A stretch of DNA of 64,000 nt from Candidatus Saccharimonadota bacterium (GTDB taxonomy: Bacteria; Patescibacteriota; Saccharimonadia; Saccharimonadales; UBA10212). Each line of letters begins with the position of its first letter. The stretch's first letter is position 1. The stretch is from NCBI GenBank assembly GCA_013815775.1, contig JACDFN010000002.1, positions 192,717 through 256,716 of the forward strand, in the 5' to 3' direction. A model generated the notes under the pieces. The model was given only the letters and a program-made list of their open reading frames with translations. It had not been told where the DNA came from and made no database searches. The position numbers and the translations under genes are program-made. This document shows, piece after piece, positions 55,747 through 61,430 of this stretch.

Positions 55747-55775
55747 ACTTTATACCCAGGTGGAAAAGCTGTCAA
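55747..55775 (-). promoter_or_regulatory. sigma-70-type promoter (TTGACA-17-TAAAGT) driving the leader and DUF378 gene
   Basis: On the minus strand, TTGACA at 55775-55770, an exact 17-nt spacer, then TAAAGT at 55752-55747. Confidence 0.45.
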
Positions 55776-55792
55776 TGGTTGTTAGTCGAAAT

Positions 55793-55825
55793 TGTGGATA
55801 AAACTGTGTAAAAGGTGGTGGATAA
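55793..55825. promoter_or_regulatory. two DnaA-box-like 9-mers (TGTGGATAA perfect, GGTGGATAA with 1 mismatch)
   Basis: Located at 55793-55801 and 55817-55825, in the same orientation, 18-50 bp upstream of the -35 above. Confidence 0.3.
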
Positions 55826-55847
55826 GTAAAGGTTCAACCCCTAAAAT

Positions 55848-56342
55848 TTAAACTATTTTATTGTCAAATATTTTTCTTAGAACATCTCTTGAATAAGGGT
55901 CTATCATATTAACTGTTAAGGTCCCGTTGTATGTGACCCCAGGCCCCGATTCATCAAATACTAAGTGTTCAAGTTTACTGCTATCTTTTAGACTATGAAC
56001 CAATGTCGGGAAATGAAATTGTTCTCCTAAGTTTGTCAATTGCTGAAATCTGAAGTATTGCTGAGCACCAAACTGAGACTTATTTGCATCTCTAAAGGTT
56101 TTTGCTAAGTCCGTTGCAATCGACAGTGCCTCGTCATGGCTGGTAAAACTTATTATGTCAAAGGAGTTTCGAGCTTTAAAAACTCGGCTATGCTCCATTA
56201 TATTAAGCGCCACAGCACCTAAGTGAACTGCTCGCCAGTATGGATAATCTTCTACAACCTTTTCAGGCACCGGTTTGAGTATCTGTCCTTCAAGCTCTTT
56301 TATGCGCTTAATATACAGTTCGCTGGAAATTTCGTTGTTCAT
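55848..56342 (-). CDS. hypothetical cytosolic protein (164 aa)
   Basis: An ORF with AAGGG 8 nt upstream of the ATG. I recognise no family. Confidence 0.5.
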   Translation of the reverse strand: MNNEISSELYIKRIKELEGQILKPVPEKVVEDYPYWRAVHLGAVALNIMEHSRVFKARNSFDIISFTSHDEALSIATDLAKTFRDANKSQFGAQQYFRFQQLTNLGEQFHFPTLVHSLKDSSKLEHLVFDESGPGVTYNGTLTVNMIDPYSRDVLRKIFDNKIV

Positions 56343-56392
56343 TATTGCCCTTTTATAACTCTAGGTTGTTGGTGAAGAAAAATAAAGTTTAT

Positions 56393-56422
56393 GCTTGGGA
56401 CCGCGCCTGCGCGGTCCCAAGC
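56393..56422. repeat. 13-bp perfect GC-rich inverted repeat (GCTTGGGACCGCG-cctg-CGCGGTCCCAAGC)
   Basis: Read directly from the sequence. It lies in the intergenic region between two minus-strand ORFs, and only a distal U-rich stretch follows on the minus strand. Confidence 0.5.
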
Positions 56423-56552
56423 GGTGTGGGGGCTAAAAAAGTCGAGGGGCCAGAGCCGCAAGGGCTACAACAACCAAGACAAATAATAGCCCAACCGTGA
56501 CATCCTTCCTAGCCCAATTGGGTACTAGAACCTCCTTCACCTTGATCATTAG

Positions 56553-57035
56553 CTACATTGTCGACTCAACGATCTTTCGGTCACCGGCGAAGTGGATGAC
56601 GAATTTAATGCTTGCATCATCTTGGTCCGGTGGTATGGCTCTTACTCGAAGAGTCCAGGTCTTGGACCTGCGCAGAGCATTACTAAGCGTTGGCGCTGTC
56701 CGAGGGTTTACGGAAGACCAGAATTTTTCATCTGCAGCCACGACACCCCTGAAGGTCTCGGTACCTGCAACAACGGTCCATCTCAACCGGTAACCATTAG
56801 TCGCGCTACCGGTGAAAGTGAACCACGATGAGGCAGTAACGCTACAGTCAAGACTGAGGCCTCCATTACTGATTTCCTGGCGCTCGCAAGCCAAAGCAAC
56901 GCTGCTGGGCGAAGCCGCGTTGGCTTCCTGACTAAACGCCAGGTACAGAACAGCTACCCCCAGAACAATTGCTCCGCAAATAAAAACGAAGCGAACGATG
57001 CGAAGAACGTCATAACCACGAACATTGTCAGACAT
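56553..57035 (-). CDS. hypothetical exported or anchored protein (160 aa), visibly GC-richer than its surroundings
   Basis: It has an N-terminal TM (FVFICGAIVLGVAVLYLAF) and a beta-rich ectodomain with 2 Cys. AAGGA lies 8 nt upstream of the ATG. Confidence 0.55.
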   Translation of the reverse strand: MSDNVRGYDVLRIVRFVFICGAIVLGVAVLYLAFSQEANAASPSSVALACERQEISNGGLSLDCSVTASSWFTFTGSATNGYRLRWTVVAGTETFRGVVAADEKFWSSVNPRTAPTLSNALRRSKTWTLRVRAIPPDQDDASIKFVIHFAGDRKIVESTM

Positions 57036-57449
57036 TGCTCTGTCCTTTCGGTCGCAGTATTAAGGTATGTCAAGAATCTCGAGAGTTCACTGAAAATCAG
57101 CGAAACCTTAGGTTAGCTTTTAGACTTACCCTAGTCACTCTCGTGAGTCATATTATAACACTTTAATAAACCATAAGCAATTGGGCTATGCAGATAGGAT
57201 TATGGGTCAGACGAAATTGAATTTTTACTTTAAGTTTGCCAATTTAGATCTCAATTAGATTAGTGGGTATTTTTAAACCGTTTAACTAATTTATATAGCT
57301 GCCAAATTATTATAACTCTACCTAACATATAATCTCCGTTTATTCTTAGCACTATAGAAGCCTAGGAGTCAGATGTATGTGAAATTTTTATTTTAACTCC
57401 CGGTAAGTTCAACCCTTCGCTTTAAGACTTAACTGTATAATACGAAATC

Positions 57450-57782
57450 ATGGAAGCTAACAATATTTTTGAAGCCGGGGAAATTACAGGAGATAACCCC
57501 GGTAATAGCGACCTACTTTTTGGGCCGGCAGGCGAGCATTTCACTAATAGGGCAGAAGCCTTCAAGGCAACCTTGGCGGAAGGCCATGAAGTATCAACTA
57601 TTATTGATGGACGGGCAGTATCAACAGAATTATTAAGCTTGCGTGCTAAGCATGCCTCTAGAACATATACTGCCAGATTTACAGAGGGAATAGGCGAACA
57701 TAAGAGAGAAATAGTAATTGGACTTACCGTTGCCGGAGTTCTATTGGCTGCTAATCAGCTGCGTATTAAAAGAAAAAAGTAA
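57450..57782 (+). CDS. hypothetical tail-anchored protein (110 aa)
   Basis: A soluble acidic N-terminal part with a single C-terminal TM (IVIGLTVAGVLLAANQL) followed by RIKRKK. Confidence 0.45.
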   Translation: MEANNIFEAGEITGDNPGNSDLLFGPAGEHFTNRAEAFKATLAEGHEVSTIIDGRAVSTELLSLRAKHASRTYTARFTEGIGEHKREIVIGLTVAGVLLAANQLRIKRKK

Positions 57783-57785
57783 CTA

Positions 57786-58439
57786 TTAGAGCTGGTTGGC
57801 ATTAGCGGCCATGAAGATTCCGTTGATTTTACTGTCTCCATCAAAGTTAAACGAAACTAGGTAATTGTTGGCGGATTTGCCCACAAAGGCGGTAGCTGGA
57901 AAGTATTGTTTGTAGTCACCGGCACGGTAATCACTCAGGGTTGCCTCGGGAAGAGAGAAGTCCCAAGGGTCAGTGCCTGTGTCGAGATACTTTATGTCCG
58001 TCACTGCCTGCGCTGCGGTACGTTCACCAACCCCCCCGCTAGCAGCAATGATTACATTTACCTTTGTGGCCATATAGCCCTGCAGTGCGGCATAGTTGCC
58101 GGATTTGACAGCCGCCTCAATGTTGTCCAATGTTGCCAAGGCGGGAGCCTTAGGTTCTGCGGCTTCGTCCTGCGCTACTTCGTTTTTTGCGTCTGCAACT
58201 GCTCTACGAAGATCACTTACGCGTTGCTCAAGCGCAGCTATCTCGGATTGCTGGCGCTTAGTAATGGTGTTAGCTTCTTTGTCCCGCCAGTAATATGTTC
58301 CATAGGCCGCCGCCACTATTAATAGTAAAGCCGTTAGTAGCTTCAACATTCTCCTAGGCTTTTTTTTGTTGGGTTCATGCAATTGATGGTTATATGAAAC
58401 CTCCTGTCTTGGTTCGCTGGGGTGTCGTTGATAATCCAT
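57786..58439 (-). CDS. hypothetical bitopic membrane protein with a coiled coil and a ~110-aa ectodomain
   Basis: 217 aa with a basic N-terminus, a TM (LLTALLLIVAAAYGTYYW), the coiled coil QQSEIAALEQRVSDLRRAVADAKNE, and a C-terminal domain. Confidence 0.55.
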   Translation of the reverse strand: MDYQRHPSEPRQEVSYNHQLHEPNKKKPRRMLKLLTALLLIVAAAYGTYYWRDKEANTITKRQQSEIAALEQRVSDLRRAVADAKNEVAQDEAAEPKAPALATLDNIEAAVKSGNYAALQGYMATKVNVIIAASGGVGERTAAQAVTDIKYLDTGTDPWDFSLPEATLSDYRAGDYKQYFPATAFVGKSANNYLVSFNFDGDSKINGIFMAANANQL

Positions 58440-58530
58440 ATTTCCCTCTCTTTACGTTATTTAAATTGTAGACCTGTTCCGGCTAACTTTCAAAAAGATT
58501 TTGAGTTAACTAAACTTCGCACCCGGCGAC

Positions 58531-58989
58531 CTATCCCTCAGGCTGCTGATTTGACTCATCACCACCGAGCAAAGGGGAGAACGCCTTGTCTAAGTCCTCA
58601 ATAATTAAGTCCGGAGCTGCTTTTTCTCTGATTGCTTGTGCTAACTTTAGAGCCTTGCTCCCTAGCGCATAGCGATAGACTATGTCGTTGTTCATAAACG
58701 GAGGGGTTGCACTCTCTTGGGCAATTTCAATTATGGATTCATCTGTGCGTTGATGAAAGTCTTCGAACTTTTCTGCAAAGTCTTCTGCATCAATAATCTT
58801 AGCTGAGCGCTGCTCGCCTTCTTCCCAGCTTGCTAAATAACGATCAAAGCCAGAGATTGATCCAGTATTACCCTTCCTGGCTAATTGAAATATTTCTTCC
58901 TTAAATACCGCCGCTACTACTTCTACCTCGTCTTCATCAAATGTAAGTTTATAGGGGTGGTCGGCGTCTCCAGTTTTCTCAAGATTCAT
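58531..58989 (-). CDS. hypothetical acidic cytosolic protein (152 aa)
   Basis: A D/E-rich ORF with no TM and no family I recognise. Confidence 0.5.
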   Translation of the reverse strand: MNLEKTGDADHPYKLTFDEDEVEVVAAVFKEEIFQLARKGNTGSISGFDRYLASWEEGEQRSAKIIDAEDFAEKFEDFHQRTDESIIEIAQESATPPFMNNDIVYRYALGSKALKLAQAIREKAAPDLIIEDLDKAFSPLLGGDESNQQPEG

Positions 58990-59019
58990 TGCTACTATTT
59001 TTACCCTTACTGCTTGGTT

Positions 59020-59406
59020 TTACAACCCTTGCCCCCACTTTAGTAGAGCTTCATATACATAATCACGCAGGATTCTTTCTGCTTCACTGCGGTTATCTAC
59101 GGGTTCCATATTCAAATGAACAGGACCGTCTCCGAGCTCTTCAATGGCAGGACCGTAAACTTGATAACCGTCCAGGTCGTTGCCTTCTATATATCCTCTT
59201 TGCACGCCAGCTGCGTAAAAATCGACAATCACCCCCGACTCCATATCGCTGGGCCCGTCAAAATTACGCAATATCCAGACCGGTGTGCCACTTTTTACCA
59301 GAGTAATCCTCTCGCTCAAATACTCAGCCCTTAGCTTAGGGCTAGCAATTGCATCTTCCTCAGTAATTTTTAATCCTGACTCACCGCTAGGTAACATCTC
59401 ACTCAT
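59020..59406 (-). CDS. hypothetical acidic cytosolic protein (~128 aa)
   Basis: I took the ATG at 59406 as the start; the ORF track starts at a TTG at 59415. I recognise no family. Confidence 0.5.
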   Translation of the reverse strand: MSEMLPSGESGLKITEEDAIASPKLRAEYLSERITLVKSGTPVWILRNFDGPSDMESGVIVDFYAAGVQRGYIEGNDLDGYQVYGPAIEELGDGPVHLNMEPVDNRSEAERILRDYVYEALLKWGQGL

Positions 59407-59680
59407 ATAACCCAACTTACACGCCGCACCTACTCAAAGCAAGCAAAAGCTTTTACAATAACCTTCACTAAATTTAATGTTGTTAGAAACAAGACAAAAC
59501 CTTGACCCTTTAGTTTAATGCTTTAAAGTAGACGGGTGCCTTAGTGAGAGGCGGTAAGGAGTTAGAATTAGTGAAGCAATTATTAAGTTTGATTAAACGT
59601 GATTATAGGCCCCATAAATTTCTTCGGGAAACCAAACCAAAACCAAAACTCTGGAATGAAATGTTAAAAGAGATTAAAGA

Positions 59681-60040
59681 CTAATAGGGGTTGGGTGCGA
59701 TGCAAGGTTCTTTGACACAGTCGTACTCGTAGCACACTCTTTCGCTATCATATGGCCTCCGTCCACAATTTGGAGGGGGGTCATGCGGATATAGGATGTC
59801 ATCTTCCGTGTTTATTGGTGTAGACGGGGGTGGTTGGGGTGGTGGATTGACTACCGGTTGACGGTTGGGCACGTGAGTACTGCCTGACTTTAAGGTTTGT
59901 TGGAGGACCTGGTTATTTTTAAGCTGACCGGCTGGTTCAGTCTCTGTTCGAACCACTACTATCCAAACGACACTAGCCGCTACTAATACTACTGGGACTA
60001 GCACTCTGGGTAGCAGGAGTATTGTAAGCTTTCGCTTCAT
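59681..60040 (-). CDS. hypothetical secreted Pro-rich protein with a 4-Cys C-terminal module
   Basis: 119 aa with a signal/anchor LTILLLPRVLVPVVLVAASVVWIVVV, the Pro-rich stretch PVVNPPPQPPPSTP, and CGRRPYDSERVCYEYDCVKEPC. Confidence 0.5.
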   Translation of the reverse strand: MKRKLTILLLPRVLVPVVLVAASVVWIVVVRTETEPAGQLKNNQVLQQTLKSGSTHVPNRQPVVNPPPQPPPSTPINTEDDILYPHDPPPNCGRRPYDSERVCYEYDCVKEPCIAPNPY

Positions 60041-60109
60041 AGAAATATTTTATAGTTTTAAGACTAGCAAAGCAAAGACACGGAGGGTGTTAATGATACT
60101 ATATATTTA

Positions 60110-60295
60110 GTGAAATATATTGCCCACGCTGGTGAAGAACATGAAGCCGTTAATGATGGGGCTTCTCATGCTGCTGCCGAAATCGCTAAAAATTCTGACT
60201 CCGGAGTTATTATAATAATAGTTATATTTCTAGTATTGGCTACCGTGGCAACTTTTTACTTCAACCGTTCAGGGCCAACAAACAATGAAAGCTAA
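60110..60295 (+). CDS. doubtful small membrane protein (61 aa)
   Basis: It has a GTG start without an SD and one TM (VIIIIVIFLVLATVATFYF). Confidence 0.3.
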   Translation: MKYIAHAGEEHEAVNDGASHAAAEIAKNSDSGVIIIIVIFLVLATVATFYFNRSGPTNNES

Positions 60296-60312
60296 GCAGG
60301 AAATATAAATCT

Positions 60313-60558
60313 ATGGACAAGCAAGCAAACATTAACCTTAATTACACTGTCCCAGTGGTTACTACTGACGGTAATGTGGTGATAGTTAGTGACCAAGGCG
60401 TTCCAACGGTGCTTTTTTTTCAAGGCCGTAATCAAGAGGGCAACAATCTTCAAGCCGATGTGGTTGCAGCTGTGCGGCTAAACAGCTTGGATGATTTAAA
60501 AAGTCTGCAAAAAGCCATTGGCGACACTGTCAAACAGCACTCTACCCGTGAGCCATAG
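60313..60558 (+). CDS. small protein, possibly DUF3467-like
   Basis: 81 aa. The overall pattern INLNYT...VIVSDQGVPTVLFFQ...VVAAVRLNSLDDLKSLQKAI resembles DUF3467 as I recall it; this is unverified. Confidence 0.4.
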   Translation: MDKQANINLNYTVPVVTTDGNVVIVSDQGVPTVLFFQGRNQEGNNLQADVVAAVRLNSLDDLKSLQKAIGDTVKQHSTREP

Positions 60559-60608
60559 TTATTATATCCCCCTTGTGTAATTTACTAATATGTTGTTATA
60601 TATAACAT

Positions 60609-60950
60609 ATGTTAGCTGCTTTAAAAGATATAAGAGAAACCGTAAGACAAGAGTTAAAAGACAAACAACCAAAAACTTATGAGTCTAAAATTAATGAAGC
60701 CAACTATCGACTACGTTTGGCGCAGACTTTGGGTATCGGTGCTGTATTGGAGCTGGGTTTGGCGACGCACTCTGAAATACAAAACAAACCGGCAGCCTCT
60801 TTACTGGCCTTAGCTATTGGTGGTGTCTGTCTCAGCGGTGCGTCTTATAACGTAGATAAAGCTGGTCTCAACCAAGAGCAGGCCAATCAAATTCAACTGG
60901 TTGCTCAGTTCAATTCCGTTCCAAATGTTGCCCCAAAACTTGGTTCTTGA
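60609..60950 (+). CDS. hypothetical protein with two hydrophobic segments (113 aa)
   Basis: The ORF is preceded by an AT-rich palindrome. The hydrophobic segments are LGIGAVLELGLA and LLALAIGGVCLSGA. Confidence 0.45.
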   Translation: MLAALKDIRETVRQELKDKQPKTYESKINEANYRLRLAQTLGIGAVLELGLATHSEIQNKPAASLLALAIGGVCLSGASYNVDKAGLNQEQANQIQLVAQFNSVPNVAPKLGS

Positions 60951-61021
60951 TATTGCAAATAATTCCCTAATACTAAGTCTATTTGCTTATGTTTTTGATT
61001 TGTTGTAATATAGTATTTTTA

Positions 61022-61051
61022 TTGACTACTGGCCCACGGCAGGACTATCCT
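61022..61051 (+). promoter_or_regulatory. candidate promoter (TTGACT-18-TATCCT) with an A/T-rich upstream element
   Basis: TTGACT at 61022-61027 and TATCCT at 61046-61051. The upstream sequence gtttttgatttgttgtaatatagtattttta is UP-element-like. Confidence 0.4.
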
Positions 61052-61057
61052 ATATTT

Positions 61058-61376
61058 GACACCGGTGAGGTGCCCGGCAAGGGAGAACCGTCATTTCGGA
61101 ACAATCTTGCTGTTTGTACGTTGCAGAAAAGAGGTAATTCCATAAAAGATGCGCACTTCTAGAGTGCAACTCCGCTGTGGGTTACAGATGTCTTCCTGAC
61201 AAGGCAAACTATTTGGGCCGCAAGGCCTAACTAAGCCTCCGCTGAGGAAAAAGGGAGACCGGTTATGCAAGCGTCGGCCTGACGTTAAAACCCGAATGAT
61301 ATCTTACGGAGCATAGTCGAATATGCAATCAGCGCTAAAAGTTCATTGTTTAGGCAACAATGAACTTTTTTGTTTG
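61058..61376 (+). ncRNA. unclassified ~320-nt candidate structured RNA with its own promoter and strong terminator
   Basis: There is no ORF of 60 aa or more on either strand. Multiple local hairpins are present: CCC-GGCAA-GGG, GCACT-tctag-AGTGC, uuGGGCC-GCAA-GGCCuaa, CCTC-cgct-GAGG, CGTC-ggcct-GACG and GCATA-gtcgaa-TATGC. The region ends in a 14-bp stem, AAAAGTTCATTGTT-taggc-AACAATGAACTTTT, followed by TTTGTTT. Confidence 0.4.
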
Positions 61377-61430
61377 CCAGAAAAAATATTTAGGGGCTGT
61401 AAGGCTTTGGCACATTGGTCTGACCATAAC

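Follow-up and report, generated by a model that had tools for sequence, protein, structure and literature searches.

What takes up a stretch of a small genome in which tightly packed housekeeping genes give way to short open reading frames (ORFs) and long gaps? The question is raised by positions 55848-61430 of a 64,000-nucleotide (nt) stretch of Candidatus Saccharimonadota DNA (contig JACDFN010000002.1), referred to here as the window. An initial annotation read this interval as a lineage-specific accessory locus of small proteins without recognisable families. It is probably a native, low-density and fast-evolving Saccharimonadales segment between two conserved blocks, a mosaic of four parts that includes an RNA gene. 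The first part would be two widely conserved uncharacterised families, E217 and J81. Fast-evolving genes with counterparts in relatives (B164, F152, G128 and K113) would form the second, together with D110, which is paired with E217. The third would consist of C160, H119 and I61, which have no detected relatives and are all predicted to be envelope or secreted proteins. The fourth is a predicted structured RNA gene of ~320 nt in the largest gap. This conserved gene is unannotated and had been missed by the initial annotation.

The ten ORFs (B164, C160, D110, E217, F152, G128, H119, I61, J81 and K113), of 61-217 amino acids (aa) and located between 55848 and 60950, were confirmed. NCBI annotates all of them as hypothetical proteins (MBA3757831-40; locus tags H0X09_03130-03175). 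Between the interval and the end of the contig there are 7-12 kb, and two independent assemblies contain the locus. The window has an overall GC content of 44.2%, no tRNA and no Rfam match at gathering thresholds. The described change of packing after the housekeeping genes is real: coding density is 66.6% (55167-61430) or 70.7% (55848-61430), compared with 96.6% at 684-55166. The non-coding share is at most 7.9% in every other 6.26-kb section of the stretch. Median ORF length is 119 aa in the interval and 325 aa elsewhere. Strand switches had been called frequent. Per gene they are about equally common: 11 genes here have four, and 52 genes elsewhere have about 15 (counted by hand).

Gaps longer than 150 bp were found at these positions in and near the interval:
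55167-55359, just upstream of the interval
55633-55847, just upstream of the interval
56343-56552, inside the interval
57036-57449, inside the interval
59416-59680, inside the interval
60951-61430, inside the interval

The two upstream gaps agree with the initial annotation, but the interval holds four rather than five. Two more are present elsewhere in the window (2723-2876 and 10657-10908), where none had been claimed. The description of the gaps as structured holds for some of them, which fold better than shuffled sequence. The folding z-scores were -2.7/-3.7 for 55633-55847 and about -3.1 for 56343-56552, both with terminator hairpins, and -1.95 for the 480-bp gap 60951-61430. The AT-rich 414-bp gap 57036-57449 (+1.4) and 59416-59680 (-0.3) are not structured.

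A predicted structured RNA gene in the largest gap

Three predicted features were located in the 480-bp gap:
~61058-61375, plus strand, conserved structured RNA gene of ~320 nt, unannotated; 5' end set by the promoter and 3' end by the terminator
61022-61051, plus strand, promoter of the RNA gene (TTGACT, 18 nt, TATCCT), from a consensus scan and the alignment
61337-61369, plus strand, terminator of the RNA, a 14-pair hairpin stem followed by a T-run

Positions 60980-61261 of the window share 77% nucleotide identity over 287 nt with the end of locus L172. The alignment contains single-base indels, and the K113 proteins next to it share only 42% identity. A covariance model of these two sequences detected further copies in L166, L180 and L177-179. 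Copies are common to five lineages only: the window, L172, L166, L180 and L177-179. The five-sequence covariance model gave no hit across 2.3 Mb of other Patescibacteria loci (helicase- or RND-anchored) and none in viral contigs. Matches of a 14-mer from the RNA in viral contigs were at chance level, and the covariance model confirmed none of them; a two-block pattern had no match there.

Conserved single-stranded motifs are present in all copies, including UUCUAGA, CGUUAAAAYCC and AAUGCAAUCAGCGC. In the model-fitted alignment of the five sequences, 91.5% of the cells are paired. Fourteen pairs have changes on both sides, compared with 6.2 ± 1.7 in shuffled alignments and 0-5 in slid controls. 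An independent MAFFT/RNAalifold analysis of the four full-length copies yielded 87 pairs, 19 of them with changes on both sides. Intermediates with G-U pairs (G-U to A-U or G-C substitutions) fit the plus strand only, and the minimum free energy of the window sequence has a z-score of -3.1. The region thus has the general attributes of a structured non-coding RNA: conservation above that of neighbouring coding sequence, non-coding indels and compensatory pair changes.

The promoter hexamers TTGAC(T/G) and TAT(C/T)(C/A)T, 17-18 nt apart, are kept in all five lineages, with variable spacer sequences. The terminator stem co-varies, with both-side changes at most positions, around an invariant loop UUAGGCA. 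This terminator likely also ends the convergent RND gene. By eye, the loop (61351-61357) is complementary to an internal single-stranded stretch (61226-61236); the window has GCCUAA/CUAA there, and the other four lineages have UGCCUG. A tertiary contact between loop and internal loop, or a pseudoknot, could form.

Size and motifs seen by eye had suggested RNase P, SRP, tmRNA or 6S RNA. These were ruled out by Rfam, ARAGORN and motif order. In the window, no Rfam 15 family reached the gathering threshold, and relaxed cutoffs (E≤1 and E≤10) gave nothing but unrelated noise for the copies from the window, L172 and L179. A literature search on non-coding RNAs of Saccharibacteria found nothing relevant.

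Alternatively, 61058-61375 may not be a free-standing RNA but a small protein gene, a cis-acting leader or a 3' untranslated region. A minus-strand ORF of 59 aa (61091-61270) has a partly similar counterpart in L172, and in L177-179 the element immediately precedes J81 and shares its strand, as a leader would. The ORF was rejected as a gene. Its start, its stop and many residues differ between the two closest copies, and its codon score is -0.13 in a log-likelihood model for which the long window genes served as training set and in which 50 reference genes score 0.219 ± 0.073. Single-base indels in conserved blocks, the 14 co-varying pairs and the strand specificity of the G-U substitutions also argue against this explanation, as do the conserved promoter hexamers and terminator of its own. 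In the window and in L166, the downstream gene is convergent, so that nothing is left to regulate in cis. A protein gene or cis element is quite unlikely, and the largest gap is read as a predicted RNA gene.

Comparative genomics has revealed several classes of long structured bacterial non-coding RNAs, among them OLE, raiA, ROOL, GOLLD and HEARO. The ~320-nt RNA resembles them in being long, multi-helical, co-varying and lineage-restricted and in having its own predicted promoter and terminator. It differs by having no Rfam 15 match, by its occurrence, so far, only in Saccharimonadales and by its candidate partner, an 81-aa cytosolic protein. OLE RNA is linked to the genes of its partner proteins, and the RNA described here shares with it a consistent linkage to one protein gene.

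The J81 family and its linkage to the RNA

Large protein databases were searched with E217 and J81; B164, C160, D110, F152, G128, H119, I61 and K113 were compared across 183 related loci. The gene linked to the RNA is the conserved anchor of the locus:
60313-60558, plus strand, J81, cytosolic protein of 81 aa; three strands and a helix in the structural model

The J81 family comprises at least 73 clusters with 57-95% identity. All members are about 80 aa long, and 15 alignment columns are invariant. Clusters bearing an organism name are all from Saccharimonadales. The copy in L082 is 95% identical in amino acids and 78% in nucleotides. In the AlphaFold2 (AF2) model, with a predicted local distance difference test (pLDDT) score of 78.6, three antiparallel strands lead into a long helix. 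The best fold matches in the PDB were Borrelia Pur-alpha (3nm7) and PC4/Sub1, and they were not significant (E=0.28-0.7, template modelling (TM) score 0.36-0.43). The order of strands and helix is like that of the beta-beta-beta-alpha modules of PUR-alpha and PC4. J81 had tentatively been described as DUF3467-like. This was not borne out: the window protein had no hit at E≤1, and only one of 74 family members matched PF11950, at E=0.13. A literature search on DUF3467 found nothing relevant.

The RNA was found in five of about nine distinct J81-anchored lineages. In every lineage where it was found, it lies on the strand of J81 within 0.1-2 kb, in three arrangements:
L177-179, RNA directly upstream of J81, ~0.1 kb
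Window and L172, J81, then K113, then RNA, ~0.5 kb
L180 and L166, RNA upstream of J81 and separated from it by other genes, 0.8-2 kb

None of 16 tested neighbouring genes from L177, L166 and L180 matched the window. RNA and J81 may work together, probably as a ribonucleoprotein, because the two remain side by side in the same orientation and all other neighbours change. The ~320-nt RNA and J81 would then be an undescribed ribonucleoprotein conserved across Saccharimonadales, and the surrounding island would be incidental. We regard this as a tentative possibility. If true, some of the smallest bacterial genomes have kept a large structured RNA.

A conserved 84-aa ORF adjoins the RNA in divergent orientation in three lineages (L166 7441-7695, L177 4097-4351 and L180 2442-2696). 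This ORF has a faint similarity to EF-Tu domain 2 and no counterpart in the window.

Conserved flanks and variable content

Contigs carrying J81 or E217 homologues provided the informative comparison. Helicase-anchored GTDB genomes were uninformative on the interval: in the best relative, at 62% identity, even the flanking genes are not syntenic. In RND-anchored metagenome loci (46-60% identity), no island protein was found near the pump.

The left flank is a conserved block of Pyr_redox_2, NAD_binding_1, ApbE, FMN_bind, DEAD-box helicase and DUF378 genes. The right flank is an RND/MMPL-type transporter. The boundary gene on the left is:
55360-55632, minus strand, A, DUF378 small membrane protein (PF04070, 74-aa call)

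A probably starts at the ATG at 55584, which makes it 74 aa long; the protein is 58% identical to the copy in L163. Locus L163 has both flanks in common with the window (Pyr_redox_2, NAD_binding_1, ApbE, FMN_bind and DUF378 on one side, the RND pump on the other), and its housekeeping genes are 58-78% identical. Between the flanks it has only a B164-like (41% identity), a G128-like (32%) and an F152-like gene (35%), a 73-aa ORF and J81 (85%). The helicase, C160, D110, E217, H119, I61 and K113 are absent. The identities of B164, F152 and G128 are well below those of the flanking housekeeping genes and of J81, which indicates fast evolution. The homologous interval of L163 is also only ~60% coding, as calculated by hand from gene coordinates; the sparse style therefore appears to belong to the locus.

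Other relatives differ in other ways. In L082, the RND pump is 83% and J81 95% identical, and only 31 bp separate J81 from the stop of the RND gene. This locus has neither K113 nor the 480-bp gap, and STAS-domain and other genes lie upstream of J81. L172 has J81 (81%) followed by the K113-like ORF, at only half that identity, and a weak STAS-like gene upstream (STAS_2, E=0.09). In L166, the helicase is 67% identical and separated from J81 by 8.5 kb of unrelated genes. L169 and L171 encode an E217 homologue (48%) followed by a convergent 114-aa tail-anchored ORF with the length, topology and position of D110. In L169, this pair adjoins the helicase, FMN_bind and ApbE genes.

Gene content between conserved flanks thus differs among relatives (L163, L082 and L166), as expected for a variable interval between helicase and RND pump. 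From this synteny comparison, the segment is read as variable in content and built largely from vertically inherited, fast-evolving Saccharimonadales genes. Of the proposed lineage-specific accessory locus, the variable content stands. A block of orphans is not supported: E217 and J81 belong to families, B164, F152, G128 and K113 have orthologues with 32-42% identity, and the D110/E217 pair recurs.

The interval resembles chromosomal plasticity zones in its conserved flanks, variable content, lineage-restricted small genes, low density and faster evolution. Unlike these zones, it has no mobility genes at its borders, no tRNA and no repeats, and it holds two strongly conserved elements, J81 and the RNA.

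Upstream of the helicase gene (minus strand, start at 55166), the region 55167-55280 shares 71-73% nucleotide identity over ~100-115 nt with L166, L001, L102 and L151, and a shorter match was found in L009. These are distant Saccharibacteria loci in which the surrounding genes are not syntenic. The match points to conservation of a 5' leader or regulatory element in the DEAD-box helicase gene. Beyond the RND pump and the window end, the "dark" region continues: past position 64000, L081 (1-3700) encodes proteins of 193, 566 and 374 aa without Pfam match up to the contig end.

The E217 family

The second widely conserved gene is:
57786-58439, minus strand, E217, membrane protein with one transmembrane segment, a short basic N-terminal tail and an NTF2-like (DUF4783-like) C-terminal domain

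HMMER retrieved 423 representatives at E≤1e-3, 93 of them at ≤1e-30, with full-length matches of 33-50% identity. The AF2 model from a 63-sequence alignment has a pLDDT of 89, with block means of 92-98 in the C-terminal domain. A disordered basic N-terminal tail is followed by a single long helix (29-89, hydrophobic at 31-49) and a C-terminal alpha+beta domain. The helix likely represents a transmembrane segment plus a coiled-coil stalk. Foldseek placed the DUF4783 structures 4ouq, 4orl and 4q53 and SnoaL/KSI proteins on top of the PDB matches (E=2e-4 to 1e-3). Nearly all of the top 50 PDB matches were NTF2-like, so the modelled domain falls within the NTF2-like fold superfamily. The structural matches agree with a sub-threshold Pfam hit to DUF4783 (PF16022; residues 105-146, E=0.0047), at 17.4 bits below the gathering score of 24.1 bits.

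The C-terminal 110 residues have the same alpha+beta cone as DUF4783 and other NTF2-like proteins (SnoaL- and KSI-like), with target-normalised TM scores of 0.54-0.65. E217 differs from the Bacteroides DUF4783 structures by an additional transmembrane helix at the N-terminus and by a coiled-coil stalk of ~40 residues. The NTF2-like head would sit outside the cell on this stalk. We know of no function for DUF4783. In L168, the E217 homologue lies beside glycosyltransferase and LexA genes. In L169 (6679-7287), genes for a ThsB-like TIR protein (Thoeris-type defence) and for a NOV_C-domain protein lie two genes from the homologue. Such defence-like genes occur in the variable neighbourhood of L169, not in the window.

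The smaller genes

The remaining eight ORFs are:
55848-56342, minus strand, B164, cytosolic protein of 164 aa, fast-evolving; codon score 0.19, no library family
56553-57035, minus strand, C160, predicted secreted or anchored protein; hydrophobic at 16-34, then ANA-AS
57450-57782, plus strand, D110, tail-anchored protein of 110 aa; transmembrane segment 88-106, then RIKRKK
58531-58989, minus strand, F152, acidic cytosolic protein, fast-evolving; isoelectric point (pI) 4.37, codon score 0.31
59020-59406, minus strand, G128, acidic cytosolic protein, fast-evolving; pI 4.34
59681-60040, minus strand, H119, N-terminal signal or anchor, Pro-rich linker (20 Pro), C-terminal four-Cys motif
60110-60295, plus strand, I61, single-pass membrane peptide of 61 aa; codon score 0.31
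60609-60950, plus strand, K113, small membrane protein; orthologue right after J81 in L172

The absence of recognisable families held for the libraries: none of the ten proteins had a significant match in Pfam, PHROGs, NCBIfam or PADLOC, and the PADLOC models gave no match at all. It does not hold for E217 and J81, which are members of large uncharacterised families. As first described, no enzyme, toxin or mobility gene was recognisable in the four libraries, and no defence gene either. At 90% clustering, all proteins apart from J81 are singletons. PDB sequence searches with B164, C160, F152 and G128 returned only noise.

The orthologue of B164 in L163 is a 167-aa ORF at the same position beside DUF378 (E=2e-35). 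The L163 orthologues of F152 and G128 (E=2e-16 and E=3e-14) are present in swapped order. F152 and G128 share no sequence similarity, and paralogy was rejected. K113 has its orthologue in L172 (E=1e-15) and is absent from L082 and L163. D110 is convergent with E217 at a distance of 3 bp. Its positional counterparts in L169 and L171 are colinear with it, with a pairwise E of 0.13.

C160, H119 and I61 are the only ORFs for which no counterpart was found in the 183 related loci. Relatives have a STAS gene at the position of H119. L174 has a Cys-rich secreted ORF at this position, which was considered as an H119 counterpart and rejected for lack of significant similarity.

Each of the six ORFs annotated with a signal or anchor indeed has one hydrophobic segment (C160 16-34, D110 88-106, E217 31-49, H119 13-31, I61 33-51 and K113 62-80), with 19-residue Kyte-Doolittle means of 1.6-3.0. 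The two acidic proteins were likewise confirmed, with net charges of -17 (F152) and -12 (G128). Several products are probably envelope proteins. The anchored ones may form part of a quickly turning-over cell-surface repertoire.

The same properties could point to an effector locus for host interaction or inter-strain conflict, with F152 and G128 as cognate immunity proteins or chaperone partners. An envelope or secreted location is predicted for six of the ten proteins, evolution is fast, gene content turns over between relatives and the two acidic cytosolic proteins are adjacent. However, the four libraries provided no toxin, secretion-system, defence or immunity family. The broad conservation of E217 in varied housekeeping contexts, for example in L168, fits general envelope biology better, and J81 and the RNA are conserved cytosolic components. 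An effector locus is therefore rather unlikely.

Coding evidence, promoters and terminators

Codon scores were 0.19-0.31 in eight of the ten ORFs. The exceptions are C160 (0.10) and H119 (-0.03), the latter with the weakest coding statistics of all. The annotated frame scored best of six for all ten.

A decaying, largely non-coding region with many spurious small ORFs was considered. It would agree with the low coding density, with singletons in all cases but J81, with the low codon scores of H119 and C160 and with C160, H119 and I61 having no relatives found. Yet seven of the ten ORFs have homologues or positional counterparts under evident constraint, and the best frame is always the annotated one. 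Anchors, AXA sites, Shine-Dalgarno sequences or leaderless promoters and terminators are placed where real genes need them. Decay is very unlikely, and the segment is better read as sparse and native.

A TATAAT-like box lies 4-10 nt before the start codons of D110, H119, I61 and K113; in D110 it is 8 nt before the ATG and suggests a leaderless transcript. Many window genes, including housekeeping genes, have such a box 4-10 nt 5' of the start and no Shine-Dalgarno sequence (e.g., starts at 17549, 22893, 46869, 48021, 51238, 57450, 60040, 60110 and 60609). This position of the box suggests that leaderless transcripts are common in this genome and that D110, H119, I61 and K113 are individually promoted. 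B164 is followed by a hairpin terminator (55662-55690), which is conserved in L163. A second predicted terminator is:
56393-56422, minus strand, terminator of C160, perfect 14-bp inverted repeat (100% complementary) with a T-rich tail

The genes may mostly be transcribed singly, each with its own promoter and hairpin terminator. Transcription one by one would explain most of the long gaps.

One gap may hold an additional small gene:
59571-59684, plus strand, candidate basic ORF of 37 aa, unannotated, within the 265-bp gap; GTG start with AAGGAG 9 nt upstream

Its sequence is MKQLLSLIKRDYRPHKFLRETKPKPKLWNEMLKEIKD. The ORF is convergent with H119 and overlaps the H119 stop by 4 nt. The enclosing 46-codon ORF (59544-59684) has a codon score of 0.26, and the part from 59574 scores 0.22. 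Among 268 non-genic small ORFs, the 99th percentile is 0.241 and the 95th 0.145. We know of no homologue of the 37-aa product.

Origin of the segment

The patchy composition that had been noted is real though modest. Gene GC content in the window has a mean of 44.3% and a standard deviation of 2.6; C160 is the highest (52.0%) and B164 the lowest (38.4%) of all window genes, and the 414-bp gap has 34%. Composition does not clearly mark the block as foreign: codon scores are within the native range for eight of the ten ORFs, and C160 and H119 deviate.

A horizontally acquired island, a prophage remnant or another mobile element with accessory cargo is highly improbable. Gene content does differ between relatives, C160 combines its GC maximum with atypical codon positions (flat GC1-3), and many small unknown ORFs with AT-rich gaps are typical of islands. 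Against this stand native codon usage in eight of the ten ORFs and the vertical relationship of B164, F152, G128, J81, E217, D110 and K113 within Saccharimonadales, at the same or nearby positions. Searches of Pfam, PHROGs and NCBIfam yielded neither an integrase or transposase nor any phage family, and tblastn against 50,697 phage records gave no match. The window has no tRNA as an insertion site, and a search for att sites yielded only short chance-level repeats, with no meaningful direct or inverted repeats flanking the interval.

Several points weigh against a native four-part segment as described here. The absence of relatives for C160, H119 and I61 is weak evidence, limited to 183 loci. 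The atypical C160 and H119 could be recent acquisitions or not translated. The proposed surface repertoire is a reading of predicted topology. The RNA alignment consists of five distinct sequences, three of which are close to one another, and its fitting to the model somewhat inflates pairing. Four J81 loci for which several kb of flanking sequence were available (L163, L164, L165 and L174) have no copy of the RNA nearby. The resemblance of J81 to Pur-alpha/PC4 is not significant (E=0.28), which makes RNA binding by J81 a guess.

Implications

Saccharibacteria genomes are full of small lineage-restricted envelope proteins in variable segments. As an island, the interval is ordinary for this phylum. 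With its native, partly conserved and non-mobile status, the idea of an imported weapon locus falls away. Two of the apparent orphans define large uncharacterised families: a membrane-tethered NTF2-like protein with hundreds of relatives, and J81 with 57-95% identity among its members. The RNA and the linked 81-aa protein are most worth pursuing. Long structured RNAs without an assigned role are rare, and one that is kept in so small a genome is likely important. J81, as its candidate partner gene, would provide a direct experimental handle on the RNA.

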